Source of the DNA: Candidatus Spyradenecus sp.
GTDB lineage: Bacteria; Verrucomicrobiota; Verrucomicrobiia; Opitutales; UBA953
Assembly: GCA_045535075.1 (NCBI GenBank)
Contig: JAZSKX010000013.1
Coordinates: 32,001 to 96,000 of the forward strand
Length of the DNA stretch: 64,000 nt
Direction of reading: 5' to 3'
Positions 5,739-58,566 of this stretch are shown piece after piece. The first letter of the stretch is position 1. Each line of letters opens with the position of its first letter. The notes beneath the pieces were generated by a model. That model searched no databases and was not told the origin of the DNA. It worked only from the letters and a program-made list of their open reading frames with translations. A program made the translations under genes and the position numbers.

Positions 5739-5774
5739 GCGTTCCCGTGAAATTTCTCGCGGGAACGCTTTTTT
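5739..5774 (+). terminator. Intrinsic terminator built from an inverted pair of the 9-mer
   Basis: GCGTTCCCGTGA-aatttc-TCGCGGGAACGC followed by TTTTTT, 22 nt after the mutB stop. Confidence 0.85.
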
Positions 5775-5820
5775 GTATCAAATTCCTCGCATTCCTGCGG
5801 GAACGCATTAGCATGAAAAC

Positions 5821-7074
5821 ATGCGCAAAATTCTTCTGAAAAACACGATGCTCGACGGAGCCGAAACCGACGTTCTCATTGCGGGAACGCGCTTTGAAAA
5901 AATCGCTCCGGGATTGCTTGCGGACGCGGAAACCGAGCTCGTCGACGCTGCGGGAACGGCAATTCTTCCGCCGTTTTACAATGCGCACACACACGCGGCA
6001 ATGACGCTTTTGCGCGGATACGCCGACGATAAAGAACTCTTTACTTGGCTCAACGATCACATTTGGCCCTTTGAAGCCAAGATGACGGCGCAAGATATTT
6101 ACGAAGGTTCCCGCCTCGCGATTTTAGAAATGATTCGCTCGGGAACGGTTTTTTTCAACGACATGTATTGGCAAAGCGACGAAACCGTGCGCGCTGCGAG
6201 CGAAATGGGAATTCGCGCTTGCGTCGGGATGACGGTCACGGATTTCATCGGCGAAGCGGCGATTGAGGCAACTTTCGATCGGCTCGCAAGCTTGAATCCG
6301 GGAAACTATGCCGATGACGCCGGGCTTGTCCGCCTGACGCTGGCGCCGCACGCCGTTTATACGGTTTGTGAAAAACTCTGGCGGCGAAGTGCCGAGTTTG
6401 CACGGGAACGCGGTTTGATTTTGCATATTCACCTCGCGGAAACGCGGAAAGAAGTCGCCGACTGCGTTGCCGCACACGGGAAAACGCCGGTGCGCTGGTT
6501 GGATTCGCTCGGTGTTTTGGGCGAGAATGTCGTCGCCGCACACGTTGTCCATGTTGACGACGAGGAGATTGCGATTTTGCGGGAACGCGGCGTTGCCATT
6601 GCGCATAATCCCTGCTCAAACATGAAGTTGGCATCGGGTATTTTCCGCTCGAAAGCTTTTTCCCAAGCGGGTTGCCGTGTCACAATCGGAACGGACGGGA
6701 ACGCTTCGAACAATAACTTGGACATGCGGGAAGAGGCGAAGTTTGCGGCGTTGCTTGCGAAAGTTTCCGGAGATCCGGAGGCGCTTCCCGCAGATGAAGC
6801 GTTGGCGTGGGCGACGCGAAACGGCGCGCTTGCCTTCGGAATTGATGCCGGGGAAATCGCAGAAGGAAAACTTGCCGATGCCGTTTTAGTTGATTTGAAC
6901 AACGAACGGATGGTGCCCTCGCACAATCTGATTTCCAATTGGATTTATTCCGCGGATTCGCGGTGCATTCGTGATGTGATTTGCAACGGAAAATTTCTTA
7001 TGCGTTCCCGCACCATTGAAAAGGAAGCGGAAATTTTGGACGCGGTTCGCCGTCTTTCGCTTTTGAAAAAATAA
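5821..7074 (+). CDS. Amidohydrolase, MtaD-like (MTA/SAH or nucleoside deaminase)
   Basis: NAHTHAAM, APHAVYT, HIHLAET, AHVVH, GTDGNASNN metal-binding motifs. Confidence 0.85.
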   Translation: MRKILLKNTMLDGAETDVLIAGTRFEKIAPGLLADAETELVDAAGTAILPPFYNAHTHAAMTLLRGYADDKELFTWLNDHIWPFEAKMTAQDIYEGSRLAILEMIRSGTVFFNDMYWQSDETVRAASEMGIRACVGMTVTDFIGEAAIEATFDRLASLNPGNYADDAGLVRLTLAPHAVYTVCEKLWRRSAEFARERGLILHIHLAETRKEVADCVAAHGKTPVRWLDSLGVLGENVVAAHVVHVDDEEIAILRERGVAIAHNPCSNMKLASGIFRSKAFSQAGCRVTIGTDGNASNNNLDMREEAKFAALLAKVSGDPEALPADEALAWATRNGALAFGIDAGEIAEGKLADAVLVDLNNERMVPSHNLISNWIYSADSRCIRDVICNGKFLMRSRTIEKEAEILDAVRRLSLLKK

Positions 7075-7078
7075 GATT

Positions 7079-8476
7079 TCAGACGGCTTTGGAATGGCGG
7101 TTTTGCGCTCCCGCCTGAAAATACGCATCAAACGGAAGTGCGATGTTTCGGATGAACATGCGCCCGATGTGTGTTACGCTAAAGCCGTTCCCGTCTTCCC
7201 GCAATGCAATCAGACCGTCGTCGGCGAGCGAGTCCAGCTTTGCGATTTCGGAGGAATACCGTGTTTTAAAATCAAATCCGAATTGCGCAGAGAGTTTGAG
7301 ATAGTCCAATTCCAAGTCGCACATAATGCGCGTGATAATTTCTCGGCGACGCAAATCTTCTTCCGTTAAAATCAGCCCCTTAGTGCGCGGAATGTTTCCC
7401 GAATCAACACGGTTCTCGTAGGCTTCAAGCGTTTTTTCATTTTGAGAGAAACTGCGCGCGGATTGTGAAATGGACGACATGCCGAGCGCGACGATCGGCA
7501 AGCCGGCGTGCGTCGAATAACCTTGAAAATTGCGTTGGAGACGGCGTTCCCGCAACGCGTGAACCAGTTCGTCGTCTTCCCGTGCGAAATGGTCCAAGCC
7601 GATGTAAACAAATCCGTTACGCGTGAGTTTTTCGATGATGGTTTTGAGTAGCGCGATTTTTTCGTCGGGCGAGGGTAGGGCTCCGCTTTGTTCCAGAAGC
7701 TTCTGCTGGGGCTTGAGCCAAGGAACGTGCGCGTAGCTGAATACGGCAAAACGATCCGGGCGAAGCTCAAGCAATTCCGCCAGTGTTTGTTCGTAGCTGT
7801 CCGTCGTCTGAAACGGCAGTCCGTAAATGAGGTCAAAATTAATTGAGGAAAAACCGCATTCCCGCAACCAACGGACTGCTTGTTCAATAAGCGGCTTCGG
7901 CTGAACACGATGGATGGCGACTTGGACTTTGGGGTTAAGGTCCTGAACGCCGAGCGAGGCGCGGGAACAGCCGAGGCGGCGAAATGCATCGACAATCTCG
8001 CGCGTCAGCGAGCGCGGATCAAGCTCGACGGAAATTTCTGCGTCCGGTGTAAATAAAAAATGCTTACGGAGCATTGCTGCGATCCGGTCGATTTGCCGGG
8101 GCGTCAGTGCGCTTGGCGTGCCGCCGCCGAAATGCAGTTGGGCGACGGAAAGAGTTGTTCCGTCGGGCGCAATCCGGTTTTTCCAAAGCTCAATTTCTTT
8201 TTCGAGTGAATCCAGATAGCGCTCAGCGTCGGAATCGCTGCGTGCGGGAACGGTCGTGCAACCGCAGTACCAGCAAAGCGATTTACAGAACGGAATATGT
8301 ATGTAAATTGAAATAACATTTCCGCCGGCGGCGATATCTTCCCGCATGATGTTGAAAATTGCGTCGTCGCCGACATCGTCGCGAAATTGAAGCGCGGTAG
8401 GGTACGACGTGTAGCGCGGCGCGGGAACGTTGTATTTTTTTACGAGGTCAAGGTCTACCTCAATAGCGTTTTTCAT
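7079..8476 (-). CDS. hemN: Oxygen-independent coproporphyrinogen III oxidase (radical SAM)
   Basis: PRYTSYPTA, YIHIPFCKSLCWYCGC, HFGGGTP, LQRNFQGYST. Confidence 0.93.
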   Translation of the reverse strand: MKNAIEVDLDLVKKYNVPAPRYTSYPTALQFRDDVGDDAIFNIMREDIAAGGNVISIYIHIPFCKSLCWYCGCTTVPARSDSDAERYLDSLEKEIELWKNRIAPDGTTLSVAQLHFGGGTPSALTPRQIDRIAAMLRKHFLFTPDAEISVELDPRSLTREIVDAFRRLGCSRASLGVQDLNPKVQVAIHRVQPKPLIEQAVRWLRECGFSSINFDLIYGLPFQTTDSYEQTLAELLELRPDRFAVFSYAHVPWLKPQQKLLEQSGALPSPDEKIALLKTIIEKLTRNGFVYIGLDHFAREDDELVHALRERRLQRNFQGYSTHAGLPIVALGMSSISQSARSFSQNEKTLEAYENRVDSGNIPRTKGLILTEEDLRRREIITRIMCDLELDYLKLSAQFGFDFKTRYSSEIAKLDSLADDGLIALREDGNGFSVTHIGRMFIRNIALPFDAYFQAGAQNRHSKAV

Positions 8477-8564
8477 GCTTTTGATTAAAACGGTTTATGC
8501 GCGGCGCGGGAACGCAAAAATAGGACTTGCGCCCTGCGTGCGTTTAGTAGAAGCTTAGAAACAA

Positions 8565-8657
8565 GTCAGGTCCCGGGCAACGAATGCCGGCGAACCCCGT
8601 CAGATCCGGAAGGAAGCAGCGGCAGTCAGGTTCCTCGTGTGCTCCGGTCAACCTGGC
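8565..8657 (+). ncRNA. ffs: Signal recognition particle RNA (4.5S)
   Basis: Helix-8 signature GTCAGATCCGGAAGGAAGCAGC; 5' GTCAGGT pairs with 3' ACCTGGC, followed by a T-run. Confidence 0.92.
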
Positions 8658-8767
8658 GTTTTTGTTTTATTGTCTATCTGCTTCCGAAAGCAACGGGGCG
8701 TTCTCGCGGATGCGAGATGAATTTCCTTTTCCCGCGCGGGAACGCGGCTTAAAATCACCCGCTAATT

Positions 8768-9988
8768 ATGAAAAAAGAACTTCCTGCCAATAAACGCCTT
8801 CCCGACGCTAAAGGATTTTTCGGACGCTTCGGGGGCTCTTTCGTTCAGCCGGAATTGCAAAAGCAAATGGACGAAATCGAGCATGCGTATCACACAATTT
8901 GCCGCTCGCACAACTTTGTTCAGGATTTGCGCAACATCCGCAAACATTTTCAGGGGCGCCCGACGCCGGTTTATTACTGCAAAAACCTGACGGAAAAAGT
9001 CGGCGGAGCCCGCATTTATCTCAAGCGCGAAGACCTGAACCACACAGGCGCACACAAGCTCAATCACTGCATGGGCGAGGCCTTGCTCGCGAAATATTTG
9101 GGCAAGAAAAAGCTCATCGCGGAAACGGGTGCCGGGCAACACGGCGTCGCGCTCGCAACGGCGGGAGCGTATTTCGGCATTCCCGTGGAAATCCACATGG
9201 GCGAAGTCGACATCCAAAAAGAATACCCGAACGTTATGCGCATGAAAGTGCTCGGCGCAAAGGTCGTTTCCGTAACGCGCGGCGATAAAACGCTCAAGGA
9301 AGCCGTCGATTCCGCGTTTGAATCCTACCTCGACGATCCGGTTAATTCCATTTACTGCATCGGCTCCGTGCTCGGGCCGCACCCGTTCCCGCTTCTCGTG
9401 CGCGAATTCCAGCGTGTCATCGGCATCGAAGCGCGGGAACAGTTTTTTGAAATGACGGGAGAAATGCCCGACAATATCTGCGCCTGCGTCGGCGGCGGCT
9501 CGAACGCGGCGGGATTTTTCCACGCGTTTATCGACGATCCCGTCGAAATCTACGGTGTCGAGCCGCTCGGTCGCGGAACCAAGCTCGGAGAACACGCCTG
9601 TTCGCTCGCCTACGGCACGGAAGGCATCATGCACGGCTTTAATTCCATTATGCTCAAAGACGAAAACGGCGATCCCGCGCCGGTTTACTCGGCGGCGAGC
9701 GGATTGGATTATCCGTCCGTCGGGCCGGAACACGCTTACTGGCACGAAATCGGGCGCGAAAAAGCCGTCAGCATCAACGACGACGAAGCCGTTACGGCGT
9801 TTTTCCAACTTTCGCGCTTGGAAGGTATCATTCCCGCGCTCGAAAGCGCGCACGCCGTCGCCTTCGCAACGAAGCTCGCCAAGGAGCGCCCGACGGAATC
9901 CATTCTCGTCAATCTTTCCGGTCGCGGCGACAAAGACCTTGATTTCGTCATGGAAAAATTCGGACATTACGCCGACCGCGAATATTAA
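8768..9988 (+). CDS. trpB: Tryptophan synthase beta chain
   Basis: [13 protein letters not shown] (PLP lysine), [37 protein letters not shown]. Confidence 0.95.
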
Positions 9989-10035
9989 GCTTAAGAAAAA
10001 CCGGATGAAGCGGAATTGTTTCGCTTCTCTTCTAA

Positions 10036-10080
10036 ATAAAAAGCGTTCCCGCGATTCTCTTTCACGGGAACGCTTTTTAT
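10036..10080. terminator. Bidirectional terminator built from an inverted pair of the 9-mer
   Basis: ATAAAAAGCGTTCCCGCGA...TCACGGGAACGCTTTTTAT downstream of trpB. Confidence 0.85.
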
Positions 10081-10130
10081 TCTGAAAAACTCTTTGGACA
10101 ATACCTTATGAGAGGAGTTTAATTTCGCGT

Positions 10131-11747
10131 ATGCTAAAAACTCTTTTCTTCGTGCTTATTTCATTGTTCGGGTTCGCGTGCGGATTAAACGCCTCCGTTC
10201 CCGCTGAAAATCTGCCGCTGGTTCCGGCCCCGAAACAAATCGAATTTACGGGGAAAAGCCGTTTTGATGTTCCGTCTTCTCTGACGATCGGCGCACCCAA
10301 ATCTCTTGCGCGCGAGGCGGAGATTTTAAAAAGAATCTTGAAAAAACGTTTGAACGTTGCAGCGACTCCGGCGGCGGGAGCGCAGGGGACGATAAGCCTT
10401 TCCGTTTCTTCCCGTATCAAAAATCGTGAAGGCTACGCGCTGAAGATTTCCCGCAACGGTATCGCGATTGCGGGCGGTTCTCCCGCCGGCGTTTATTATG
10501 GAATTCGCACGTTGGAGCAACTTCTTATTTCGCAGAAAAAACACCTTCCGGAGCTGAAAATTATTGATGAGCCGCGTTTCTCCTATCGGGGGCTGATGCT
10601 CGATCCCGCGCGCAATTTCCTCCCGCTCAAAGACGTGAAACGATTCGTCGAAACAATGGCTTCGTGCAAGTTCAACGTGCTTCATTTTCATCTTAGCGAC
10701 GACCAAGGCTGGCGCATTGAAATCAAAAATCCTAAATACAGGAAACTGATGTCTGCGGGAGCACAGGAAAACAAACCTGCGGGAACGCGCGGCTATTATA
10801 CGCAAAAAGAAATTCGGGAACTCGTCGATTTCGCGGCGGCGCATCACGTCGAAATCATTCCCGAAATTGATATGCCGGGACACAATATGGGCGCAATTTT
10901 TTCCTATCCGGAATTGACTTGCGAATATGTCCGCCGCGTCAACGCCGATCCCGATCTTTTAAAGAAAAACAATAAAATGAAAATCGAGATCTGGAGTAAA
11001 GCAGGGGTTTCCGAAGCCTTGCTCTGCGCCGGAAAAAAGTCGACGTATGCATTTTTTGATGACGTATTGGGCGAAATCTGCCGCTTGTTTCCGTCAAAAC
11101 GCTTCCACCTCGGCGGCGATGAAGCTCCCGCAAAATGCTGGGATCATTGCAAGGATTGCCGGGCGTTTATGAAAAAAGAGGGGTTGAAAAATACGCAGGA
11201 ACTCATGGCGTATTTCTTCCAACGTAATTTCGATTCCCTCGCAAAAGCCGGTAAAACGGCACTTTATTGGTACGAGCTCGACGTGCCGAAATACCCGAAA
11301 AATGCCGTAATGTACGCGTGGCGCATGGGACTGACAAAGCAGACAATTGATCGCGCTTTGCGGGAAGGTTACAAAGTTATTTGTTGCCCGGGCGAATATG
11401 CTTACTTGGACTATCCGCAAACCCGAAGCGAATCCAACCACGGCTGGATGCCGATGACGACGCTCAAACGTTCCTACGAATTCGACCCCGGATACGGACA
11501 CCCGAAAAACGAAGAAGCCTCAATTCTCGGTTGCGAAGGCACGCTTTGGGCGGAGCATTTGCCTACTCTCGAACAAATTTACGGAAAGGCGTTCCCGCGC
11601 GCACTGGCACTCGTCGAAGCCGGATGGACTCCTATGGCACGCCGTGACTGGGAAAACTTTAAGCTCCGCGTAGCTCCGATTGTGCGCGATATGCGCAAAA
11701 ACGGTGTTCCTGCTTATTGGCCGGAAGACGAATTCGGCAAAGAGTAA
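10131..11747 (+). CDS. Beta-N-acetylhexosaminidase (GH20), secreted
   Basis: Signal peptide; DEPRFSYRGLMLD, HLSDDQGWR, PEIDMPGH, catalytic HLGGDE. Confidence 0.92.
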   Translation: MLKTLFFVLISLFGFACGLNASVPAENLPLVPAPKQIEFTGKSRFDVPSSLTIGAPKSLAREAEILKRILKKRLNVAATPAAGAQGTISLSVSSRIKNREGYALKISRNGIAIAGGSPAGVYYGIRTLEQLLISQKKHLPELKIIDEPRFSYRGLMLDPARNFLPLKDVKRFVETMASCKFNVLHFHLSDDQGWRIEIKNPKYRKLMSAGAQENKPAGTRGYYTQKEIRELVDFAAAHHVEIIPEIDMPGHNMGAIFSYPELTCEYVRRVNADPDLLKKNNKMKIEIWSKAGVSEALLCAGKKSTYAFFDDVLGEICRLFPSKRFHLGGDEAPAKCWDHCKDCRAFMKKEGLKNTQELMAYFFQRNFDSLAKAGKTALYWYELDVPKYPKNAVMYAWRMGLTKQTIDRALREGYKVICCPGEYAYLDYPQTRSESNHGWMPMTTLKRSYEFDPGYGHPKNEEASILGCEGTLWAEHLPTLEQIYGKAFPRALALVEAGWTPMARRDWENFKLRVAPIVRDMRKNGVPAYWPEDEFGKE

Positions 11748-11949
11748 ATATTTTTTTAGTGTAAAAATTACAAAATTTCCCCTCAAAACAGGGCGTGGTG
11801 ATTTTGGGATTTTGTTCCCGAGGCAAAATGGGCGCAGTAAATGTCGTCTCGGGGTTTCGCACACAAAACCATTCCTCCTGTAAGGGCAAAAGAACAGCCG
11901 TTCTGCTTTAATTCTTAATCTTTAACGCATTATCGTCTATAATGTCCGT

Positions 11950-13089
11950 ATGCGTAAAATCATTCTCCTCGGGGCGACGGGTTCTATCGGCGAAAACACA
12001 CTCGAAGTCATCGATGCTCATCGCGATGAAATTGAGCTTGTCGGTGTTGCCGCTAATACGCGCTGGCGGGAACTTGCCGCGATTGCTCAAAAATACGTCG
12101 TTAAAGATGTTGCAATTTTTGACGAACGTGCGGCGCGAGAAGCCCGGGAGTCCGGTTTGTTTCCTGCGGGAACGCGCTTCTATGTCGGCTTGGACGGCCT
12201 GATTGAAATTGCGACGCTTGCCGAAGCGGATCTTGTCATCACGGCGGTTGTCGGAACATTGGGACTGAAACCGACACTGGCGGCGATTCGCAGCGGCAAG
12301 GATGTTGCGGTTGCGAGCAAGGAAATCCTCGTTCTCGCCGGACAATTCGTTATGTCGGAAGCGCGGGAACGCGGTGTGAAAATTTTGCCGATGGACAGCG
12401 AGCACAACGCGATTTTCCAATGTATCGGCGAGGAAAGGCGCTATGTCGATCGGATTATTCTTACGGCGAGCGGCGGCGCTTTTCGCGATTACACGCCGGA
12501 GGAAATGGCACGGGTCGTTCCCGCAGATGCGCTTAAAAACCCGAATTGGAACATGGGGCCGAAAGTAACGGTTGATTCGTCCAGTATGGCTAACAAGGGT
12601 TTGGAACTGATTGAGGCGACTTGGCTTTTCGATCTGCCGGAATCGCGCATTGATATTGTTGTTCACCCGCAAAGCATCGTGCATTCGATGGTGAAATTTT
12701 ACGACGGTTCGGTTCTTGCACAACTCGCGCCGCCGTCAATGACTTTTCCGATTCAACACTGCATTTTCTATCCGCAGCGGCTTGCGGGAACGCGCCCGTC
12801 GCTGGATTTTTCGCAAGCGCTTTCGTTGGAATTCCGCGCGCCCGATTACGAAAAGTATAAATGCCTGCGCTTAGCGCGAGCGGCCTCGCGCGCCGGAGGA
12901 ATTGCTCCCGCAGTTTTCAACGCCGCCAACGAAGTTGCCGTCGATGCGTTTTTAAAAGGGAAGATTCCCTACCTTGAAATTCCGGAAATTATCGAAAATT
13001 GCCTCGAAAAAATTCCGGCTCGCGTTCCCGCAGATTTGGAGGATGTTTTGGCGGTTGATGCCGAAGCGCGTCGCCTCGCGGCTTTATAA
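11950..13089 (+). CDS. dxr: 1-deoxy-D-xylulose-5-phosphate reductoisomerase
   Basis: LLGATGSIG, PMDSEHNAIFQ, TASGG, PNWNMGPKVTVDS, NKGLELIEA. Confidence 0.96.
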   Translation: MRKIILLGATGSIGENTLEVIDAHRDEIELVGVAANTRWRELAAIAQKYVVKDVAIFDERAAREARESGLFPAGTRFYVGLDGLIEIATLAEADLVITAVVGTLGLKPTLAAIRSGKDVAVASKEILVLAGQFVMSEARERGVKILPMDSEHNAIFQCIGEERRYVDRIILTASGGAFRDYTPEEMARVVPADALKNPNWNMGPKVTVDSSSMANKGLELIEATWLFDLPESRIDIVVHPQSIVHSMVKFYDGSVLAQLAPPSMTFPIQHCIFYPQRLAGTRPSLDFSQALSLEFRAPDYEKYKCLRLARAASRAGGIAPAVFNAANEVAVDAFLKGKIPYLEIPEIIENCLEKIPARVPADLEDVLAVDAEARRLAAL

Positions 13090-13147
13090 TTATCGTCCGC
13101 AAAAATTTCCGCTTTTCTTGAGTCGGAAAGTGAATTATTTTTTCATT

Positions 13148-13813
13148 ATGAAAGCTTTATCCCCTGTTTCAAAACGGAAGGCATTTACACTCGTCGAAGT
13201 CTTGGTCGTTGTCGGCGTTATTGCGATTCTTGCCGCAGTTACCGTCGGGCTTTTGGGTCCGGTGGAAAACGCAATCAGAACATCGAATGCGAAAGCGCAA
13301 TGCGACAAGATTTCCATGGCGGTGGAGGACTTTAAATCGACTTATGGCGAGTATCCGATGCTTGAAGATTCGGGCGATCAGGAAGATTGGGAAAAATTGC
13401 TCATGGATTCGATGCGCGGCGACAAAATCCTCGTACGAAAGGGCGGGAAAATGCAGCTCATCGATTTTGATGACGGGAAATCGGATGCCGAACGCCGCCC
13501 GTTTTTGGAACTCAGTGAATTTTCGTTTGATAGTGAAGATGTCGATTCCGCCACTAAAATTCTCGACCCGTGGGAAAACCCGTGGCAATACCGCTACAAT
13601 GTAATTTCAGGCGGCAAACTCGGGAAGAATTGGTTCGGTCCGACGTTCATTCTAATCTCCGCCGGACCGGAATACGAAGATCCCGTGGGAACCGATGACT
13701 TCTTTACCGGCGATTTGGAAGAAGAAGGGGTGCCGGATTTGGACCCGGACGGAGACGACTACTACTTTGCCGACATCCGCGCCGACAATATTACGAACTT
13801 TGGTGCGAAATAA
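13148..13813 (+). CDS. Prepilin-type N-terminal cleavage/methylation protein (GspG-like pseudopilin)
   Basis: KRKAF/TLVEVLVVVGVIAILAAV class III signal; DPWENPWQY and LISAGP GspG-like motifs. Confidence 0.85.
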   Translation: MKALSPVSKRKAFTLVEVLVVVGVIAILAAVTVGLLGPVENAIRTSNAKAQCDKISMAVEDFKSTYGEYPMLEDSGDQEDWEKLLMDSMRGDKILVRKGGKMQLIDFDDGKSDAERRPFLELSEFSFDSEDVDSATKILDPWENPWQYRYNVISGGKLGKNWFGPTFILISAGPEYEDPVGTDDFFTGDLEEEGVPDLDPDGDDYYFADIRADNITNFGAK

Positions 13814-13837
13814 GCATCTTCCGACTTAGCTTTTCTC

Positions 13838-14629
13838 ATGAACAAAGTCATTTTTTCCATCTGTGCGTTGCTGATTTTCGTCGTTGCCGTGCTCTTTTGT
13901 GCGCGTAGCCTCGGAACGGCGTTCCCGTCGGCGTCAATCGAAGAAAGCGAAGACGAAAATTACAAGCGAGGAAAAACGCTTGCCATGGAAAAAAAAGACG
14001 CCGAAGCGATGGAAGCATTTTATAAAGTCGTTAATTCCCGCGACGAAGCTCCCGAATCGCACTTAGAGTTGGGGTTGCTCGCCTTGCGCCGTGATATGCC
14101 GCTCGATGCCGTTTATCACTTGCGTCAGCATCTGCGCCAAAGCCTTACGGACTCGAAGAAAAGTTTGGTTGAAGATCAGATTCGGGCAGCAACAAAATTG
14201 TTCCTCTCCCAGCAACCGGGACGCCCGTTCGATGCCATTTCCGCCTCGCCGGATTTTGAGAAAAAATACGATTCGCTACGCAAGGAAAACGATGCTCTGA
14301 AGCGGGAACAGCTCGTCTTGCGCAGCCGGATCGCCGATTTGGAAAATCGCCTCGGACACGCAACGACGCCTCCGGTCGCGGGAAGACAGGTCGCCGCAAC
14401 CGCGCCGACGAACACGCGCCCGGTCGTCGCTCCGGCTCCCGATTCGCCCGGCCGGTCCGACATTCCTAAGACGCACACCGTTGTTCGCGGCGACACACTG
14501 ACCAAAATCAGCCAAAAATACTACGGGACGCAAAATCGCTGGCGCGAAATTTACAAATACAACAGCGATACGCTTTCGACGCCGACTTCTCTTAAGCCCG
14601 GAGACAAGTTGAAATTGCCGCCGCAATAA
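13838..14629 (+). CDS. Membrane-anchored TPR-like / coiled-coil / LysM peptidoglycan-binding protein
   Basis: N-terminal hydrophobic segment, TPR-like helices, C-terminal HTVVRGDTLTKISQKYYG...LKPGDKLKLP. Confidence 0.85.
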   Translation: MNKVIFSICALLIFVVAVLFCARSLGTAFPSASIEESEDENYKRGKTLAMEKKDAEAMEAFYKVVNSRDEAPESHLELGLLALRRDMPLDAVYHLRQHLRQSLTDSKKSLVEDQIRAATKLFLSQQPGRPFDAISASPDFEKKYDSLRKENDALKREQLVLRSRIADLENRLGHATTPPVAGRQVAATAPTNTRPVVAPAPDSPGRSDIPKTHTVVRGDTLTKISQKYYGTQNRWREIYKYNSDTLSTPTSLKPGDKLKLPPQ

Positions 14630-14636
14630 TTTTCCG

Positions 14637-16279: not shown

Positions 16280-16351
16280 CCGATTTTCATGTTTCCCGTG
16301 GGAGCTGATTTATGATTTCATAACCCGAAAACTTTTTTAATTCTTCTAACC

Positions 16352-45239: not shown

Positions 45240-45293
45240 AGGATTAAAAAACTCGAAAGCCTTTCACTAAGTCTGTAGAACTTAAATACAACC

Positions 45294-47174: not shown

Positions 47175-47183
47175 CGACAATCC

Positions 47184-48263: not shown

Positions 48264-48507
48264 CGAGAACGCGTCGCGAAAATCGTCTACCGCCGTCAAA
48301 ACGGTAATTCCTCCGCAAAATCTTCCTGCAGAGACAATTCACTTTCCCGCGGGAACGCATGTTTGACGACGTCTTGAGCGCTCCGATTTTTGCCTCCATG
48401 CAAGAACGAATCAAATTTTTCAGTTACGAAAACCTCGTGCGTCAATTCGAAGCCGTGACTGCAATTTCCCGCCTTGCGGAAACAATTTGATCGTTGTTTT
48501 CTTAAAA

Positions 48508-48551
48508 AAAAAGAAGCGTTCCCGCGAATAGCTCACGGGAACGCTTCTTTT
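48508..48551 (-). terminator. Bidirectional terminator built from an inverted pair of the 9-mer
   Basis: AAAAGAAGCGTTCCCGCGA-atagc-TCACGGGAACGCTTCTTTT between convergent mnmA and pfp. Confidence 0.88.
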
Positions 48552-48568
48552 AAACTTTAACCCTGCTT

Positions 48569-49795: not shown

Positions 49796-49913
49796 AAGAT
49801 GAACTGTGTGTTAAAAATGCTGAGAATCGTTTGTCTATATTGAATTTTAAAGCGCTGAAAGTCAAAAGCTTAAACGCGTTCCCGCGCCGCTCTCGTGATT
49901 TTCTAGGAAAACA

Positions 49914-49950
49914 AAAAGCGTTCCCGTAAAAAATTCACGGGAACGCTCTT
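49914..49950 (-). terminator. Intrinsic terminator of eno built from motif variants
   Basis: Minus strand GCGTTCCCGTGA-atttt-TTACGGGAACGC-TTTTTG. Confidence 0.82.
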
Positions 49951-49985
49951 CGTGAAGCTCTAAGCTTTAAAGCTAATCTTTCCGA

Positions 49986-51338
<1,353 letters not shown>

Positions 51339-51478
51339 CTAAATTGGACTACAGATTAGCTTTCAAGCCCGAAGAAATCAAGCGGGAACGGATTCTAACA
51401 GACATCTGATAATTGATAACGAAGCGTGTAAAGGAAAGTTGTTTACAAACGCAGTCTGCGGCGATTGTTGTTTTTTAA

Positions 51479-52369
51479 TTATTTTTTCGGATCGAAGGCG
51501 TCCCGAAGCGCGTCTCCGAAAAGATTAAGCGCAAAGAGCGTTCCCGCAAAGAAAAGCCCCGGGAAAAGCAAAAGCCACGGATAATCCGCCATTGCGTCGG
51601 CGCCTTCTTTAATCATAAGCCCCCACGAAGTCATCGGCGGTTTAACGCCCAAGCCGAGAAAGCTGATAAATGCTTCAAGCAGCATGACTCCGGGAACGGT
51701 CAGCGTTGCATACACGATTACGGTTCCGAGAGTATTCGGAAAAAGATGGCGCCACATGATTTTTGTCGTTGATTGCCCCATACAAATTGCAGCTTCGACA
51801 AACGCCTGCGAGCGCAGCTCCCTTACCTGATTCCGCACAATGCGTGCCATGGTGAGCCAGGAAATTGCGCCGATGGCGATGTAAATCAGCCACATTTCCT
51901 GTCCGAAAACAACCGTCAACAAAATCACGAAAAGCGTAAACGGTAATGCATAGAGAATATCCACGATTCGCATCAGAATCGAATCGCGCATCCCGCCGAC
52001 GTATCCGGCAATCATCCCGTAAACGACGCCGATAACGCAAGAAACCACGGTTGCAATCAAACCGACCTGCAAGGAAACGCTCCCGCCGTAGAGCAACCGC
52101 GAAAGCACGTCTCGCCCGAGAGTGTCGGTCCCGAGCCAGTGTTCCCGTGACGGGCCGGCAGGGCCGAGTGCCAAATCCTGCGCTTCGAACGGGAACGGCG
52201 CAATCCAAGGCGCACAGAGGCAGGCGCACAACATCACGAGCACAAAAATCCCGGCAACGACACCGGGGCGATTGGCAAAAAAACGTTCGCGGGAACGCTT
52301 CCACGGCGAAACCGGGATTTCGGAAAGAGATTCGACCTGCTCGCCGCTTGTTTGTTTTGAGAATTTCAC
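51479..52369 (-). CDS. Oligopeptide ABC transporter permease (OppC/DppC-like)
   Basis: HWLGTDTLGRD, EAA loop (FVEAAICMG), SFLGLG, GDALRDAFDP. Confidence 0.9.
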   Translation of the reverse strand: MKFSKQTSGEQVESLSEIPVSPWKRSRERFFANRPGVVAGIFVLVMLCACLCAPWIAPFPFEAQDLALGPAGPSREHWLGTDTLGRDVLSRLLYGGSVSLQVGLIATVVSCVIGVVYGMIAGYVGGMRDSILMRIVDILYALPFTLFVILLTVVFGQEMWLIYIAIGAISWLTMARIVRNQVRELRSQAFVEAAICMGQSTTKIMWRHLFPNTLGTVIVYATLTVPGVMLLEAFISFLGLGVKPPMTSWGLMIKEGADAMADYPWLLLFPGLFFAGTLFALNLFGDALRDAFDPKK

Positions 52370-52488
52370 GGACGCTCATTAAAAAACGTCCTGCACGAAA
52401 ATAGCAACCGCGAACACGCATCCTCGCCGGCAAACTCGCTCTTGCGGGAACGGCAGCGGAAAGCTACGATGAAGCTTCTGTTTTACCC

Positions 52489-55400
52489 ATGAGCTCTGAC
52501 CTGAATTTTAATCTTGCCGCAAATGCGAAAAACTACAGCGACGTTCCGCCTTCTGAGCCGGAAACCGTCAACGAAAGTAGCGTTCCCGCAGAAGAAATTC
52601 CGGACTTTGTTCATCTGCACGTCCACTCCCAGTATTCCATGCTCGACGGAGCAACGCGCATCGCCAGTAGCGTTGACAAAAAAAGCAAAACCCTGCTTGC
52701 AAAAGGACTCGTTCAGAAAGCGAAAGAATGCGGCATGCGTGCAGTCGCGTTGACCGACCACGGGAACATGTTCGGCACAAAGCTTTTTTATGACACCTGC
52801 CGCGCCGAAAAAATCAAACCCATCATCGGTTGCGAAGTTTACGTCGCCCGACGCACGCGTTTCGACAAAGGGAAAAACGTTCCCGCAGATGCCGATCCGA
52901 AAATCGACCGCTCCGGCGACCACCTGATTTTGCTCGCGAAAAATCTCACCGGGTACAAAAACCTCGTTAAAATCGTTTCCGCCGGCTGGATTGACGGGTT
53001 TTATCACCGTCCGCGTATCGACAAAGAAATTCTTGAGAAATTTAGCGAAGGACTCATCGTTTCGAGCGCTTGCATCGCAGGAGAAATTCCGAAGGCGATT
53101 TTAAAAAACGATTGGGGGAAAGCCGAAGCCGCCGCAAAATGGTATAAAAACATTTTCGGTGAAGATTTTTACCTCGAAATTCAGCGTCATCCGAACAACG
53201 GCGAACACAGCACGGAGGAAACGCGCGACGTTTACCTGCGGGAAGTCCGCGCCGCACAAGGACTTTTCGAACTCGCAAAAAAACTGAAAATCAAGGTTAT
53301 CGCGACAAATGACGTTCACTTCCTCGATGAAGCCGATGCAGACTCGCATGAAATTTTACTTTGCTTAAGTACGGGAAAAAAGCTTTCCGACGAAAACCGG
53401 ATGCGCTACACGCGCCAGGAATGGTTTAAAAGCAAAGAAGAAATGTACCGGTTGTTCAAAGACTGCCCGGAAGTCTTGAGTAATACGACGGAAATTGCGG
53501 ACAAGGTCGAAGAATACGACTTAAACTCGCCGCCGATTATGCCGTTCTTTCCCATTCCTGCAGAGTTCGGCTCGGAGGAAGAATACGCAAAACGCTTCAG
53601 TGAAGCCGACCTGATCGCACTTTGGGGCGAAGACCGCTTCAAAAAACTCGGCGGCTACGAGAAAGTCCTTCGCATCAAGTTCGAATGCGATTATTTGGAG
53701 CATCTCACGCTTGAAGGTGCCGCAAAGCGATGGCCGGACGGCATTCCGGAGGACGTGCGGGAACGCATTGATTTTGAACTGAACACGATTCGGACGATGG
53801 GCTTCCCGGGGTACTTTCTCATCGTTCAAGACTTTATCGCCGCCGCAAGAAAACTCGGAGTCATCGTCGGCCCCGGGCGCGGGAGCGCCGCCGGATGCGT
53901 TGTCGCGTACTGCCTGGGAATCACAGGAATCGACCCGACAAAATACGACTTGCTTTTTGAACGCTTCCTCAATCCGGATCGCATTTCGATGCCCGATATC
54001 GATATCGACTTCGACGACGCGGGGCGGCAAAGCGTACTCGAATGGGTCACAAAAAAATACGGCGCGGATCACGTTTCGCACATCGTTACGTTTGGTGTCA
54101 TGGCTCCCAAAAGTGCAATCAAAGACGTTGCCCGCGTCATCGAATTGCCCTTGGCGGAATCAAACAATCTGGCAAAGCTCGTTCCCGCGACGCCCAAAAT
54201 TACGATGTTTAAGGCGATGCAGGAAGTTCCCGAATTAAAGGAAAAACTTTCTTCGACAGATCCCGTCGTCGCGCGAACCATGCAACTCGCCGAAAAACTC
54301 GACGGCACCGTGCGCCAAAGCGGGGTCCATGCATGCGGCATTCTCATTAGCCGCGATCCGCTCACGGAAACGATTCCCGTTATGCCGACTGCAGGAGAAA
54401 GCCTGCTCACAACGCAATATGACGGACATTTTGTCGAGCCGATCGGTTTGATTAAAATGGACTTCCTCGGCTTGCGCACGCTGACGATCATCAAATCTGC
54501 GCTTGCCAATATCCGCGAATCTTCGGGCAAAGAAATCGACATCGATAAAATTCCGATGGACGATACCAAGACCTTCGAGCTTTTTTCCGCGGGAAGAACA
54601 ACGGCGCTGTTCCAGTTTGAATCAGCCGGCATGAAAAAGCACCTCATGGCGCTAAAGCCGAATCGCTTTGAAGACCTCGTAGCGATGAACGCGCTCTACC
54701 GCCCCGGACCCATGGCATACATTCCGCAATTCATCAAACGCAAACACGGAGAAGAGCCGATTGTTTACGATCATCCTCTGATGGAATCGTATTTAAAAGA
54801 TACTTACGGAATTACGGTTTATCAGGAACAGGTTATGCTTCAATCCCGTGCGCTCGGGCAATTTACGCGCGGGGAATCCGACACGCTTCGCAAAGCCATG
54901 GGGAAAAAGATGGCGGATGTCATGGCAAAGCTCAAAGAAAAGTTCATCAACGGCTGCCTCACGAACCCGAAATTCATGGAAGCCGATGTTTGCGGGAACG
55001 ACGAAAAAAAAGCAACGGCGCTTTGCAACAAAATCTGGGGCGACTGGGAAGCATTCGCGCAATACGCGTTTAACAAATCGCACTCGGTTTGCTACGCCTA
55101 CATTGCCTATCAAACCAGCTGGCTCAAAGCGCATTATCCCGTGGAATTCATGGCATCGGTTCTCGATTCCGAAACCGGAAATCCGGAAAAAATGCTTTTC
55201 TTCATCGCAGAATGCGAAAGCATGGGGATTCGCGTACTCGGCCCCGACATCAATTCTTCAAATATCGGATTCGCTCCCGACCCGAAAAATAACGCCATCC
55301 GATTCGGCTTCGGCGGGCTGAAGGGTCTCGGGGAAAAAGTCGCGGAAGAAATCATTCGGGAACGCAAAACAAACGGACGCTACAAAAGCTTTGTGGATTT

Positions 55401-56493
55401 TATGCAACGCATGGCACGCGTTCGCGTTGTTTCCGTAGACGAAAATAACGTCCGACGGGAACAAAAACTCGTCCTCGGTCGCGGTCTGCAGGCACTTATC
55501 GTCACGGGAGCGTTTGACGGTTGCGACATTTTTGAGGATCGCCGCCATCTGCTCGATTCCGCAGACGCAGTCCGCAATTCCTTTTCCAAAGAGGAAGAGG
55601 ATTCAAGTCAACTTGGGCTTTTTGACATGCTCGGCGACAACGTCGGAGACGAACTCAATCGGGATCTCATTACGCGCACGGGAACGCCGATGTCCGAAGC
55701 CGAAAAACTCCGCCACGAACGCGAGTTGCTCGGGCTCTATATTTCCGGGCATCCGCTCAACGCGTTTGTTAAACTCGATCGCGCGCTCACAACATTCAAA
55801 GGAGCATTTGAGGATTGTAAGCTTTCCCGCTACGAGAAACACAACGTCCGCCTCTGCGGAATGTGTTCCGAAATCAAAGTTAAGTCCACTAAAGACGGAC
55901 GAAAATTCATGACATTAATGCTCGAAACGCATTCCGATGCGTACGATATTTTCTGTTTCAGCGATGTCGTCAATCTCAAGATTCTAAACGCGGGAACGAA
56001 ACTGCCGGACGGCACAATCGTCAAAAGCGGCGCAATGCTTGAAAACGGAACCGTTCTCGAAGACGGCTCCATCATTGCCGTCGACGGAGAACTACGCTTT
56101 GCCAAACGCAAAAAAGACGACGTGGAAATCTCCGAATGGCGTTTTAATGCTACGCGTATTTCTTCGCTCAAAGAACAACTTCCCGTTCTCCTGAAAAAAA
56201 TTACATTCATTCTCGACGGGAACGCTCCGGAGGAAATGCACCGCTTCCTTAAGGAAAAACTCGTCCCGCATATTTCCTCAAACAGCGGCGGAACCGCCAT
56301 CGCACTTGCCGTTGCCGTCGACGGCGACATTAACAATTTGCTTGAAGCAGATCTCGGCGAGGCGATGACGGCATTTTTCCCGGCTCCGGCGTTTCGCGAG
56401 CTGGCGGAAGATCCCGCCGTCGTCGGATACGAAATTGTTCCCGTCGAGCCCTACAAGCGTCCTTCGCGTTTTCCTTCCCGCAGTTACAACTAG
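52489..56493 (+). CDS. dnaE: DNA polymerase III alpha subunit
   Basis: FVHLHVHSQYSMLDG PHP domain, GPGRGSAAG, PDIDIDFD, KMDFLGL, YAFNKSHS. Confidence 0.97.
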   Translation: MSSDLNFNLAANAKNYSDVPPSEPETVNESSVPAEEIPDFVHLHVHSQYSMLDGATRIASSVDKKSKTLLAKGLVQKAKECGMRAVALTDHGNMFGTKLFYDTCRAEKIKPIIGCEVYVARRTRFDKGKNVPADADPKIDRSGDHLILLAKNLTGYKNLVKIVSAGWIDGFYHRPRIDKEILEKFSEGLIVSSACIAGEIPKAILKNDWGKAEAAAKWYKNIFGEDFYLEIQRHPNNGEHSTEETRDVYLREVRAAQGLFELAKKLKIKVIATNDVHFLDEADADSHEILLCLSTGKKLSDENRMRYTRQEWFKSKEEMYRLFKDCPEVLSNTTEIADKVEEYDLNSPPIMPFFPIPAEFGSEEEYAKRFSEADLIALWGEDRFKKLGGYEKVLRIKFECDYLEHLTLEGAAKRWPDGIPEDVRERIDFELNTIRTMGFPGYFLIVQDFIAAARKLGVIVGPGRGSAAGCVVAYCLGITGIDPTKYDLLFERFLNPDRISMPDIDIDFDDAGRQSVLEWVTKKYGADHVSHIVTFGVMAPKSAIKDVARVIELPLAESNNLAKLVPATPKITMFKAMQEVPELKEKLSSTDPVVARTMQLAEKLDGTVRQSGVHACGILISRDPLTETIPVMPTAGESLLTTQYDGHFVEPIGLIKMDFLGLRTLTIIKSALANIRESSGKEIDIDKIPMDDTKTFELFSAGRTTALFQFESAGMKKHLMALKPNRFEDLVAMNALYRPGPMAYIPQFIKRKHGEEPIVYDHPLMESYLKDTYGITVYQEQVMLQSRALGQFTRGESDTLRKAMGKKMADVMAKLKEKFINGCLTNPKFMEADVCGNDEKKATALCNKIWGDWEAFAQYAFNKSHSVCYAYIAYQTSWLKAHYPVEFMASVLDSETGNPEKMLFFIAECESMGIRVLGPDINSSNIGFAPDPKNNAIRFGFGGLKGLGEKVAEEIIRERKTNGRYKSFVDFMQRMARVRVVSVDENNVRREQKLVLGRGLQALIVTGAFDGCDIFEDRRHLLDSADAVRNSFSKEEEDSSQLGLFDMLGDNVGDELNRDLITRTGTPMSEAEKLRHERELLGLYISGHPLNAFVKLDRALTTFKGAFEDCKLSRYEKHNVRLCGMCSEIKVKSTKDGRKFMTLMLETHSDAYDIFCFSDVVNLKILNAGTKLPDGTIVKSGAMLENGTVLEDGSIIAVDGELRFAKRKKDDVEISEWRFNATRISSLKEQLPVLLKKITFILDGNAPEEMHRFLKEKLVPHISSNSGGTAIALAVAVDGDINNLLEADLGEAMTAFFPAPAFRELAEDPAVVGYEIVPVEPYKRPSRFPSRSYN

Positions 56494-56495
56494 CG

Positions 56496-57005
56496 TCAAA
56501 TGAGCAGGCTTTTCTCTAAACGCAACAACTCTGCTTTACGCGAAGGCCCGCCGGCGTAGCCGCAAAGTTTTCCGTTTTTTCCTACAACGCGGTGGCAGGG
56601 AATGATGAGCGCAATCGGATTGTGCCCGATGGCGCCGCCGACGGCTCGCGCTGAAGGTTTCGCGTCAGATTCGCCCTGCCCGAGTGTTCCCGCGAGCGCC
56701 CCGTAAGTTTGCGTTTCCCCGTAAGGAATTTCGCGAAGCTTTTCCCAAACGCGCAAACGGAATTCCGTACCGAAAGGCGCGAGCGGGATTGCCGCCGCCG
56801 AAGGATTTTCCCCGAGAAAATAAGCATCCAGCCAACGGAACGTTTCTTTAAAAATCGGCAAATTCTCCCGCAAAATCCAAGGGCGCTCAGACGCAATTTC
56901 CGCAACTTGCCTGCCGCCTTCAAACCATAGCCCGGTAAGCGCATTTTCGCTTGCCGACAAAGTTATTTCTCCCAAAGGCGAACGATAGCGGGCGAGATAA
57001 ATCAT
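56496..57005 (-). CDS. ogt: Methylated-DNA--protein-cysteine methyltransferase
   Basis: GTEFRLRVW, IPYGET.TYG, ARAVG, IPCHRVV. Confidence 0.93.
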   Translation of the reverse strand: MIYLARYRSPLGEITLSASENALTGLWFEGGRQVAEIASERPWILRENLPIFKETFRWLDAYFLGENPSAAAIPLAPFGTEFRLRVWEKLREIPYGETQTYGALAGTLGQGESDAKPSARAVGGAIGHNPIALIIPCHRVVGKNGKLCGYAGGPSRKAELLRLEKSLLI

Positions 57006-58399
57006 TGCGCTTCAACGACTTTTCGCGCACGCGTTCCCGCAACGTCCGCGGGAACGGCAGAATAGTTTTTAAGAAAAATGAGAATAAAGACCACGTTGAT
57101 TAGCCACGAAAGCGTGTCGGAAATCGGCAAACTGAGCCAAACGCCGCGCGTTCCCCAGAAAAGAGGAAGCACCAGCAAAAGCGGAATCAACAAAAGCATT
57201 TGGCGTGTCATCGACAGGAAAATCGCCAATTTTGCCCGCCCGATCGCCTGAAAGAAATTTCCGATGACGATTTGCATTCCGATAACGGGAAGCGCATAGC
57301 ATGAGACGCGAAGCGCTTCGTCTGCAGCGGCAAGCAAGGCGGCATCTTGCGTAAACATTTTCGAAATAAATTGCGGAAAAAACACGCAAATCGCCCAACC
57401 GATCGTCGTAACCACCGTTCCCGCGAGAATTCCGTAGCGCAAAGTCAGGCGCACGCGCTCGGTTTGTCCGGCTCCGTGATTAAAGCCGGCTATCGGCTGC
57501 ATGCCTTGGGTAATTCCGTTGACAATCATCGCAATCAGCATGACCACGCGACACAAAATTCCGTAAGCCGCCACGCCTGTATCGCCGGAATATTTGAGCA
57601 ATTCATGATTCACGACAATGACGACAAGGCACCCGCAAACATTCATCATGCACGGCGCCAATCCGATGGCGACGATGCTTTTCGTTACACCGGCGCGCAA
57701 ACGAAAAATTCCCGAACGAAAATGCAAGGTGTGTTTCGGGTTGAATAAATGCGCAAGCACCCATCCCAGTCCGAAGACTTGCGCGATCGCCGTCGCTCCC
57801 GCGGCGCCGCGCATCTCCCAGCCGAAGCAGTAAATGAAAATCGGCGCAAGCACGACATTTACGATTACCGAGATCAGCAATGAATACATTGCTTTTTTCG
57901 GATAACCCGAAGCGCGCATAATGTGGTTGAGATTAAAAAAGCAAAACGTAATCGGTAAAGTCAGCAAAATGATTTGCATAAACTCGTACGCGGGAACGAA
58001 CGTCTCCCCGCTTGCGCCGAAAAGCCGCAAAATCGGATCGAGAAAAAAACAGGTTCCCCAGCCGAATCCGATTCCGGAAATAAGACTTAACCCGAGCACG
58101 TTTCCCAAGACGCTGTAAGCCTCGTCCGTTTTTTTCTCTCCGAGGCGAATCGAACAAACCGACGCCCCGCCGATGCCGACCAAGGTGCCGAGCGCAAAGG
58201 TCAAATTCATCACGGGAAATGCAATCGCAAGCGCCGCAAGCGCTGCCGCGCCGATCCATTGCCCGATGAAAATGCTGTCAACAATATTATAAAGCGAAAA
58301 AACAATCATTCCCGCAATTGCCGGAAGCGAATATTTGACCAGCAACGGCAGAATCGGCGCATTTTCCAGCGCAGCCATTTCGTTTTCCTTGGGTCCCAT
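57002..58399 (-). CDS. MATE family efflux transporter (MepA-like)
   Basis: Multiple TM segments; LYNIVDSIFIG, RASG, QGMQPIAGFNHGA. Confidence 0.92.
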   Translation of the reverse strand: MGPKENEMAALENAPILPLLVKYSLPAIAGMIVFSLYNIVDSIFIGQWIGAAALAALAIAFPVMNLTFALGTLVGIGGASVCSIRLGEKKTDEAYSVLGNVLGLSLISGIGFGWGTCFFLDPILRLFGASGETFVPAYEFMQIILLTLPITFCFFNLNHIMRASGYPKKAMYSLLISVIVNVVLAPIFIYCFGWEMRGAAGATAIAQVFGLGWVLAHLFNPKHTLHFRSGIFRLRAGVTKSIVAIGLAPCMMNVCGCLVVIVVNHELLKYSGDTGVAAYGILCRVVMLIAMIVNGITQGMQPIAGFNHGAGQTERVRLTLRYGILAGTVVTTIGWAICVFFPQFISKMFTQDAALLAAADEALRVSCYALPVIGMQIVIGNFFQAIGRAKLAIFLSMTRQMLLLIPLLLVLPLFWGTRGVWLSLPISDTLSWLINVVFILIFLKNYSAVPADVAGTRARKVVEAQ

Positions 58400-58532
58400 G
58401 AAGCCGCTACGCTAAATCTTTTTTCTCAAAAATGCAATCGGCGAGAACGCCTGAAACGACGGATAAAAAAACGAAAAAAAACAAATCGGAGTTCGTCTCA
58501 AATTTCTTTTGGTTAAATCCGCTTCTCCCAAT

Positions 58533-58566
58533 AAAAAACGTTCCCGCGCATTGATCGCGGGAACGT
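58533..58566 (-). terminator. Intrinsic terminator of rho built from two perfect 9-mers
   Basis: AAAAAACGTTCCCGCG-cattgat-CGCGGGAACGT; the A-run gives a U-tail on the minus strand. Confidence 0.82.

Follow-up and report, generated by a model that had tools for sequence, protein, structure and literature searches.

Predicted intrinsic terminators built from inverted pairs of a dispersed octamer, a candidate DNA uptake sequence, in Candidatus Spyradenecus

The window analysed here is a 64,000-nucleotide (nt) stretch from Candidatus Spyradenecus sp., an uncultured gut bacterium of the Verrucomicrobiota, whose genome (G000), at 99% completeness, amounts to 1.95 Mb spread over 18 contigs. Six intergenic hairpins in this window are assembled from two facing copies of one short word, the 8-mer CGTTCCCG (reverse complement CGGGAACG), always as a "same-order pair" in which CGTTCCCG forms the left arm and CGGGAACG the right. 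From their position, tails and pairing pattern, these motif-pair hairpins and their counterparts elsewhere in the genome are very probably intrinsic terminators, and the word has been built into roughly 40%, not all, of the terminators predicted in G000. The hairpins are a co-option of an abundant word, and the design is a known one made from new letters. As to the word itself, DNA uptake appears to be its likeliest role.

The original prediction had located the six hairpins beside the genes for methylmalonyl-CoA mutase, trpB, frr and 3-oxoacyl-ACP synthase III, mnmA and PPi-phosphofructokinase (pfp), enolase (eno) and Rho, and its positions, arm order and gene assignments were all confirmed. 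The hairpins and the source of their arms are as follows:
5739..5774, + strand: motif-pair hairpin with a U6 tail, 22 nt past the methylmalonyl-CoA mutase stop; predicted intrinsic terminator
10036..10080, no strand assigned: motif-pair hairpin behind trpB, with A- and U-tracts on both sides; predicted bidirectional terminator
29963..29991, - strand: motif-pair hairpin with no U-tail, 44 nt past the frr stop
48508..48551, - strand: motif-pair hairpin with tails on both sides, 25 nt past the pfp stop, -22.6 kcal/mol; predicted terminator
49914..49950, - strand: motif-pair hairpin with a U-tail, 40 nt past the enolase stop
58533..58566, - strand: motif-pair hairpin with a U-tail, 24 nt past the rho stop
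1..64000, no strand assigned: dispersed 8-mer CGTTCCCG / CGGGAACG, 177 copies (76 forward, 101 reverse); source of the hairpin arms

The mutase hairpin has a 12-bp stem with one U-G pair, a 6-nt loop and a predicted energy of -22.9 kcal/mol, and the pfp hairpin also lies 253 nt past mnmA, which is on the other strand. Three of the hairpins do share identical 12-nt arms, as had been noted; the U-G wobble attributed to them, however, is found for trpB only on the antisense strand (-22.1 kcal/mol), the sense strand carrying a C-A mismatch instead (-19.5). The motif had been described as a 9-mer, which is too strict a definition: the invariant part is the 8-mer, with a preference for G before it and for Y and then A/G after it. 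A U-tract accompanies five of the six hairpins. The frr hairpin, correctly reported to lack one, is the exception and counts against the terminator reading at that site. In G000 it probably does not function as an intrinsic terminator and likely represents either a stabilising stem or a terminator that has decayed; across the genus, a perfect pair at close spacing, followed by a U-tail, occurs at 7 of 17 frr loci.

The genome-wide distribution of the hairpins is that of terminators. There are 140 perfect intergenic inverted pairs in G000 and, among intergenic gaps of at least 25 nt, they occupy 53 of 154 convergent and 80 of 729 tandem gaps but 0 of 192 divergent ones (P 6e-22 and 4e-9). At spacers of 10-14 nt, 110 same-order pairs were counted, compared with about 17 by chance and 11 in the reverse order. 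When up to one mismatch is allowed, 85 of the 98 hairpins in tandem gaps lie closer to the upstream stop, at a median distance of 25 nt, and at least five T residues occur within the 10 nt behind the hairpin in 86% of them on the sense strand as opposed to 46% on the antisense strand. Since single copies of the word have no A-rich 5' flank, these U-tails are specific to the terminators.

The proposed check of what fraction of terminators contain the motif was carried out with a motif-blind predictor applied to 999 gene ends and 500 mid-gene controls, in 38 of which it fired. Among its 334 distinct hairpins, 123 hold a motif pair, 37 hold one exact copy and 174 hold none; at -15 kcal/mol or better, the pair is present in 122 of 276 predicted terminators, hence the share of roughly 40%. 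Gene ends with a perfect pair (n=143) average -23 kcal/mol. A consensus terminator scan of window positions 44000-62000 returned 38 sites compared with 36.9 in shuffled sequence; its top two sites are the pfp and rho hairpins, and the eno hairpin was missed. Rfam searches at the gathering score returned signal recognition particle RNA and two tRNAs and nothing else, and the 16S gene is absent from the assembly.

Among the genomes compared, the pairs are practically confined to the genus. Each of its 19 genomes holds 15-214 same-order pairs, with same order exceeding reverse order in all 19, as opposed to 0-1 pairs in the 42 others (18 other family and 24 other order genomes). The excess over the chance estimate is large in G000 (155 vs 61) and in G013 (74 vs 4). 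Against this stand the three densest genomes, G003, G006 and G015, whose 160-173 same-order pairs barely exceed a chance estimate of 143-155.

The pattern of wobble pairs further indicates that the stems act as RNA. At the ninth stem pair of tandem hairpins (n=83), where U-G is the commonest pair, the sense strand reads U-G in 41 cases and C-A in 7 (P 6e-7), and this asymmetry implies that the stems pair within the transcript. The convergent hairpins (n=57) show 21 U-G to 14 C-A, as expected for hairpins used both ways. In the core, by contrast, only 33 of 728 pairs are G-U, compared with 65 of 273 at positions 9-11; because only one arm was required to be perfect, the opportunity for core wobble is halved, which does not close the gap. 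The core pairs thus seldom wobble though able to do so, and on this sequence evidence the eight core letters are kept more tightly than RNA pairing requires. The fixed order of the arms is likely set by the 3' flank of the word, which avoids T at its second position: such a flank would be unable to begin a U-tract and would instead lengthen the stem towards the loop, so that the U-tail would fall on the unconstrained 5' side of the word.

The available RNA data are assembled contigs from one study, below the two-study bar, and as contigs cannot show 3' ends they are not counted here as evidence of termination. In metatranscriptome run X2, one contig spans 920-5740, stopping at the mutase hairpin, with no depth over 6001-8400; a contig over 49968-51221 ends 18 nt before the eno hairpin is reached, while another, starting at 48604, begins 53 nt short of the pfp hairpin. 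Run X1, which is probably DNA, spans the pfp, eno and rho hairpins, and a low-depth RNA contig in X3 (9946-10182) runs across the trpB hairpin. Taken together, the original interpretation of the hairpins as intrinsic terminators is borne out by position, U-tail and strand-specific wobble and probably does not hold for frr.

Orthologous loci show how the word entered these sites. Behind eno, 8 of 11 genus loci have a perfect pair, with loops that differ, two have one changed arm and one is incompletely readable, as opposed to 0 of 18 readable loci in other genera, many of which have unrelated U-tailed hairpins. Behind rho, the perfect pair is present in 6 of 9 genus orthologues and in 0 of 11 other-genus loci, a count that leaves out two loci with paralogues of 40% identity. 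Together, the two genes imply that the word has replaced ordinary terminators within the genus and that turnover proceeds gene by gene. The Rho query itself found no match in any of the 10 genomes of genus g2 or the 9 of genus g5, and two Rho-like genes in most genomes of g1, g3 and g4; a loss of Rho in g2 and g5 is possible, this having been a search with a single query rather than a family model.

A further comparison is provided by the relatives in which the word is scarce. The genus divides into 15 high-density and 4 low-density genomes (G001, G002, G013 and G014), and by identity the closest kin of G000 are three of the latter, G001, G002 and G013, with only 1,347-1,385 copies each; enolase and Rho are 97% and 98% identical between G013 and G000. 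The comparison covered 2.08 Mb of G013, with part of one contig outside it. When 1,213 orthologue pairs are compared, G013 retains 642 of the 3,302 coding sites of G000 (19.4%), practically the same as the 608 of 3,155 (19.3%) for 40 control words, and by this sequence measure the word decays in G013 at the neutral rate. Of the sites that G013 itself possesses, 642 of 804 are common to G000, vs 16% for controls, and the encoded peptide differs at 1,401 of the 2,660 lost sites. Six near-outgroup loci yield 38 sites common to the outgroup and G000 alone and 2 common to the outgroup and G013 alone; at 22 deeper outgroup loci the corresponding counts are 85 and 5. An enolase tree places G013 inside the genus with its sister unresolved. 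The outgroup sharing therefore makes it likely that the word was lost in the G013 lineage.

The terminators of G013 have followed a different course from the coding sites. For the 99 hairpins of G000 with a readable 3' region in G013, 27 are perfect there (one gene being counted twice), 15 have one or two changes, 19 have three or four (some of them by chance) and 38 positions have no hairpin. Counting per strand, fully paired U-tailed hairpins with changed arms amount to 31 of 187 in G000 vs 60 of 155 in G013, and these contain 25 and 59 compensated pairs, respectively; full pairing and a U-tail were demanded because a looser scan is swamped by unpaired chance matches. In G013, therefore, stems are kept through compensating changes while the letters are lost, from which it follows that termination needs the stem and that a separate, genome-wide force holds the letters.

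No short-word dialect replacing the 8-mer was found in G013. The G000 genes without a match in the 2.08 Mb number 196, and comF lies on the uncovered contig part. A 132-amino-acid (aa) protein, one of 20 such genes with adjacent neighbours in G013 and the one tested, was considered as a factor lost with the word and rejected: it has no Pfam match, and although none of the four low-density genomes has it, it is also absent from 5 of the 15 with high density. Tandem arrays of heptamers (AGAGCTT, AAAGATT, AAAGCTT) are a further feature of these intergenic regions, often right behind stops, and occur in the window on the - strand at 29992-30015 and 49954-49985, behind frr and eno. G000 has 46 arrays, of which 21 lie within 60 nt of a stop and 11 are followed by a motif arm. 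In G013 there are 283 (loci L156-L298), the source of its top new 9- and 10-mers, so that the arrays expand in the lineage losing the 8-mer.

The word that supplies the hairpin arms is present throughout the genome. G000 contains 5,159 copies, one per 378 bp, compared with 69-587 expected under order 0-3 models, divided between 2,632 on the forward and 2,527 on the reverse strand. It differs from its own reverse complement and is thus non-palindromic. Genes, as called within this analysis, hold 4,319 of the copies (84%), in both orientations (2,585 and 1,734) and all six frames, and three synonymous shuffles gave 380-387 coding copies vs 4,281 observed. The proteome bears the imprint of the word: 996 of 1,210 AGT tripeptides (82%) and 821 of 899 VPA tripeptides (91%) are spelled with it, and both are about five times as frequent as expected. 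Single changes are rare at positions 4, 7 and 8 and common at positions 1-3 and 5. On the 3' side, 88% of copies continue with C or T, and T is rare one base later, as it also is (6%) in 563 single intergenic copies. On the leading strand as judged by GC skew, 2,048 of 3,709 coding copies (55%) read CGGGAACG. Across the genus, the 8-mer ranges from 552 to 7,777 copies. All 19 genomes show enrichment of the 10-mer GCGTTCCCGC, with 138-3,301 copies each, as opposed to none of the 18 other family or 24 other order genomes.

Foreign DNA is poor in the word, with 0.5 copies per kb in two prophage regions as opposed to 2.6 in genes common to G000 and G013. These regions (C16:188000-221000 and C8:21000-36000), both of which we take from their translated genes to be Mu-like, have host-like GC content and five-fold fewer word copies, and the C16 prophage carries two Dam-family (PF02086) methyltransferase genes. 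Besides prophages and low-GC islands, the longest word-free stretches include ribosomal-protein and rpoB genes (C5:244000-249600 and C5:322300-325100). Pairs are present at 120 viral loci, 97 of which hold 2-3 copies in up to 4 kb; the viral contigs L337, L350 and L373, two of them at 33-34% GC, hold 7-10 word copies in 2-4 kb and are possibly phages of the genus, or contain internal repeats. The PyrH encoded in the window shares 82-96% identity with 17 records and at most 78% with all others. By this protein, the loci L008, L009, L017, L018, L019 and L023 cluster within the genus clade, and they hold the word at 0.8-4.8 copies per kb.

Of the explanations considered for this abundance, uptake bias is the best, with each rival judged less probable, and we consider it rather probable, on the sequence features described above, that the word is a DNA uptake sequence (DUS) that has accumulated through such bias. 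DNA carrying CGTTCCCG(Y)(R) would be taken up and recombined more often than other DNA, so that the word would accumulate genome-wide; two copies facing each other behind a gene would, together with a U-run, complete a terminator; the same force would then keep both arms at consensus; and where that force relaxed, as G013 suggests, terminators would keep the stem and lose the letters. The features by which a DUS or an uptake signal sequence (USS) is recognised are present: strong over-representation on both strands, within genes and between them, and likewise the proteome imprint, frame bias, terminator pairs of preferred order and restriction to a clade. In these respects the word appears to work like a DUS.

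Much of the machinery for uptake is encoded as well. ComEC is present in 41 of 41 genomes, DprA, PilB/PilT, a secretin and ComM are each present in five of five, PilC and ComF were also found, and all 19 genus genomes have at least seven prepilin motifs. Two of these genes lie in the window:
19599..20297, + strand: ComF-family gene that scores under the curated cut-off and is counted among the competence-type genes of the genome
13169..13813, + strand: type IV prepilin-like gene, acidic, one of seven in the genome, with no ComP match

The prepilin gene (window 13169-16279 region) stands between dxr and genes for a LysM protein, recF and maf, with comF next at 19599; in G013, the pilin and LysM-recF genes are on separate contigs. 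A 141-aa pilin gave 12 close homologues, otherwise matching only generic pilin N-termini, and a pilin search of metagenome contigs gave one locus. Prepilin motifs number 10-11 rather than 7 in G001, G002, G013, G014, G018, G012 and G004, that is, in all four low-density genomes and three high-density ones. In G014 there is also an additional secretin, together with a further secretion ATPase, and this suggests a type II secretion system that the 12 genus genomes outside these seven have lost.

Several observations weigh against uptake as the cause. Efficient uptake in Neisseria, Haemophilus and Vibrio depends on ComEA, yet no protein exceeds the ComEA cut-off (TIGR00426) in any of five genomes, and a PF12836 search gave strong matches only to frames of 800-1,200 aa. 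None of the seven G000 pilins matches the ComP family. The competence and pilus genes do not track the word: sister genera free of the motif possess them equally, and in G013 they appear intact despite the decay of the word. One-off variants, at about 6,400, outnumber the 5,159 perfect copies, and genes not common to G013 are only slightly poorer in the word than those that are (2.3 vs 2.6 per kb). Finally, the literature searched holds no uptake or transformation data for the genus. The hairpins, which had been advanced as independent support for uptake, were overstated in that role, as any word kept on both strands would yield them: according to the available part of PMC1852404, an abundant motif and its complement supply hairpins, which point mutations make into terminators. 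The hairpins show that the word is abundant and maintained at the sequence level; they do not show uptake as such.

If uptake is set aside, the same co-opted terminators might rest on a word kept inside the cell, by methylation-linked repair or conversion as in HIP1 or by a bias at the recombination step. This is unlikely, if the least unlikely of the rivals. It would suit the density of one copy per 378 bp, the uneven tolerance of changes, with positions 4, 7 and 8 nearly invariant, and the failure to find ComEA and ComP; gain, loss and replacement of HIP are tied to methyltransferases in the available part of PMC4390886, and decay in G013 alongside intact pilus genes fits the loss of a cytoplasmic factor. 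Yet the word is not a palindrome, and none of four methyltransferase families is common to all motif-rich genomes (PF00145 in 3 of 5, PF01555 in 4 of 5, G000 being the one without, PF02086 in 2 of 5 and PF02384 in 15 of 19), the Eco57I-like and MT-A70 families lying outside the search; G018, with 7,023 copies, has only a partial PF01555 match. Marginally less probable again is that selection keeps the word as the target of an abundant DNA-binding protein, one that would serve in chromosome organisation, in repair loading or in the recognition of self during defence. The sequence is indeed held on both strands, very short gaps are fewer than random, prophages are depleted in the word, and its occurrence is not followed by that of the uptake genes. 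With thousands of copies altering the encoded amino acids, the load would nevertheless be heavy for weak selection at each site, and no candidate protein is at hand, the single deleted gene tested being absent from 5 of 15 motif-rich genomes too. Chi and KOPS sites are strongly oriented with replication, and a leading-strand share of 55% argues against a polar site of that kind.

The hairpins had alternatively been proposed to be a family of repetitive extragenic palindromic (REP)-like elements. Such a mobile REP/REPIN-like family, spread by a REP-associated transposase (RAYT) or tied to an Ssn-type nuclease, is a very improbable source and is rejected for the bulk of the copies, which stand singly in coding sequence, while the hairpins have distinct spacers and no linked transposase. 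Only 280 of 5,159 copies (5.4%) lie inside the 140 hairpins, vs 84% in genes; 133 of the 140 spacers are distinct, and orthologous terminators are kept vertically while their loops change. The suggested search for a RAYT did find two Y1-transposase genes in G000, but no perfect motif hairpin lies within 5 kb of either, and other palindromes are found there; a search for PF01797 gave no match in 7 of 18 other genus genomes, among them G003, G006 and G015, each with more than 7,500 copies. As to the nuclease, 17 of 19 genomes gave PF01541 matches, every one of them in a frame of about 500 aa, with no small GIY-YIG protein among them. A true composite palindromic repeat family holding the word does occur at about 8 loci, and flanking sequence is common to another hairpin in 23 of 140 cases, 5 of which form one group with that repeat. 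The genome thus does contain a REP-like family with the word inside it, but one that accounts for few hairpins and for no coding copies. The RAYT-like genes lie at C10:1-1100 (approx.) and C14:6500-7250, each flanked by its own palindromic repeats, and the composite REP/BIME-like repeat, which measures about 130-190 bp and includes GCCCTTTCAGGGC (17 copies), is found at C8:242500-243600, C1:128700-129350 and C5:50300-54900, with no match by blastn in the 2.08 Mb of G013 DNA. Equally improbable is that the word is selected as RNA, as the site of a termination or RNA-binding factor, with terminators as its primary role. The strand-specific wobble, with U-G commonest at position 9, does point to selection at the RNA level on the hairpins; the coding copies, though, run in both orientations and all six frames, and the terminators of G013 keep stem and tail without the letters.

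The remaining pairs of the window all lie within genes. Reverse-order pairs occur at 3030 and 34271, and two same-order pairs are as follows:
40992..41022, no strand assigned: same-order pair within a UvrD/PcrA-like helicase gene, consistent with chance pairing
57032..57056, no strand assigned: same-order pair within the last codons of a MATE transporter gene

The window also encodes, at 20300-26293 on the - strand, an exported-looking protein of 1,997 aa with 19 word copies and no NCBIfam match. Elsewhere in G000, three adjacent genes at C1:103000-107300 resemble cas2, cas1 and a cas9 of 1,019 aa, as judged by eye.

Returning to uptake bias, its implications would reach beyond this genus. If it holds, the word is a third one, in the Verrucomicrobiota, so that biased uptake and the co-option of its sequences as terminators would evolve repeatedly, and a new receptor is implied. 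The genus would then show both the gain and the decay of an uptake sequence, with the terminators as its slowest-fading record. It is about an even chance that all parts of this account hold together: that an uptake sequence has arisen independently for a third time, here beyond the Proteobacteria; that a type IV pilus system without ComP and ComEA reads it; and that the sequence has taken over about 40% of the terminators and has been switched off at least once (in G001, G002 and G013, perhaps in G014). Should uptake not be the cause, some unknown force is rewriting thousands of codons. In either case, drive and selection become testable by comparing closely related species, one with 5,200 copies and another with 1,400, and the G013 data separate two roles, the stem being kept for termination and the letters not. 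For these gut bacteria, the word is also a practical marker, both in binning and in genetic tools still to be developed.

The comparisons with known systems draw on the available portions of the papers cited. In those portions, uptake sequences are named only for Neisseriaceae and Pasteurellaceae (bioRxiv 10.1101/2025.10.24.684340, PMC1939737). Among the literature matches listed, none concerns the word or uptake sequences in this phylum, those for the string GCGGGAACG are all unrelated by title, and none reports, by title or start of abstract, an uptake sequence beyond the two known families; k-mer surveys in subscription journals or supplements could list the word. Like cyanobacterial HIP1, the word is a very dense octamer, genic and intergenic, with lineage-specific loss; unlike it, it is non-palindromic and has no methyltransferase common to its carriers in the four families, whereas HIP elements are palindromes with cognate methyltransferases (PMC4390886). 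As in REP/REPIN/BIME and NTS/SRM elements, more than 100 intergenic inverted pairs form stem-loops (PMC11893778 for NTS/SRM). REP and NTS, however, are extragenic repeats of about 20-40 nt beside an enzyme gene, with 2% of NTS in genes (PMC11893778), while 84% of the present copies stand singly in coding sequence, the hairpin spacers vary, and it is other palindromes that accompany the transposase genes.

The closest parallels are the two established uptake systems. With the Pasteurellaceae USS the word shares frame bias, tripeptide enrichment, use in terminators and scarcity in foreign DNA; it has no long AT-rich extension, its tripeptide enrichment is about 5-fold (AGT, VPA) vs about 2-fold, and its one-off variants exceed its perfect copies, in contrast to 764 vs 1,471 in H. 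influenzae (PMC1852404, PMC2817400, PMC1939737). With the Neisseriaceae DUS it shares a short non-palindromic form, thousands of copies on both strands, and inverted pairs that are enriched between convergent genes and rare inside genes (PMC1852404, PMC3630211, bioRxiv 10.1101/2025.10.24.684340). According to the same three sources, the copy number is near the top of that family (K. oralis, 5,918), a copy is held by about 55% of predicted terminators there and by 160 of 334 here, and the preferred order prevails by 226:5 in N. meningitidis Z2491 and by 140 intergenic pairs to a handful here; the Neisseria order is explained by an A-rich 5' flank, which single copies here do not have. The differences also include unrelated letters and phylum, an 8-nt core, ComP and ComEA, which were not found, and the standing of uptake, which is shown there and predicted here. 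The pattern of terminators nonetheless matches, as originally proposed, that of the DUS- and USS-pair terminators of Neisseria and Pasteurellaceae (PMC1852404).

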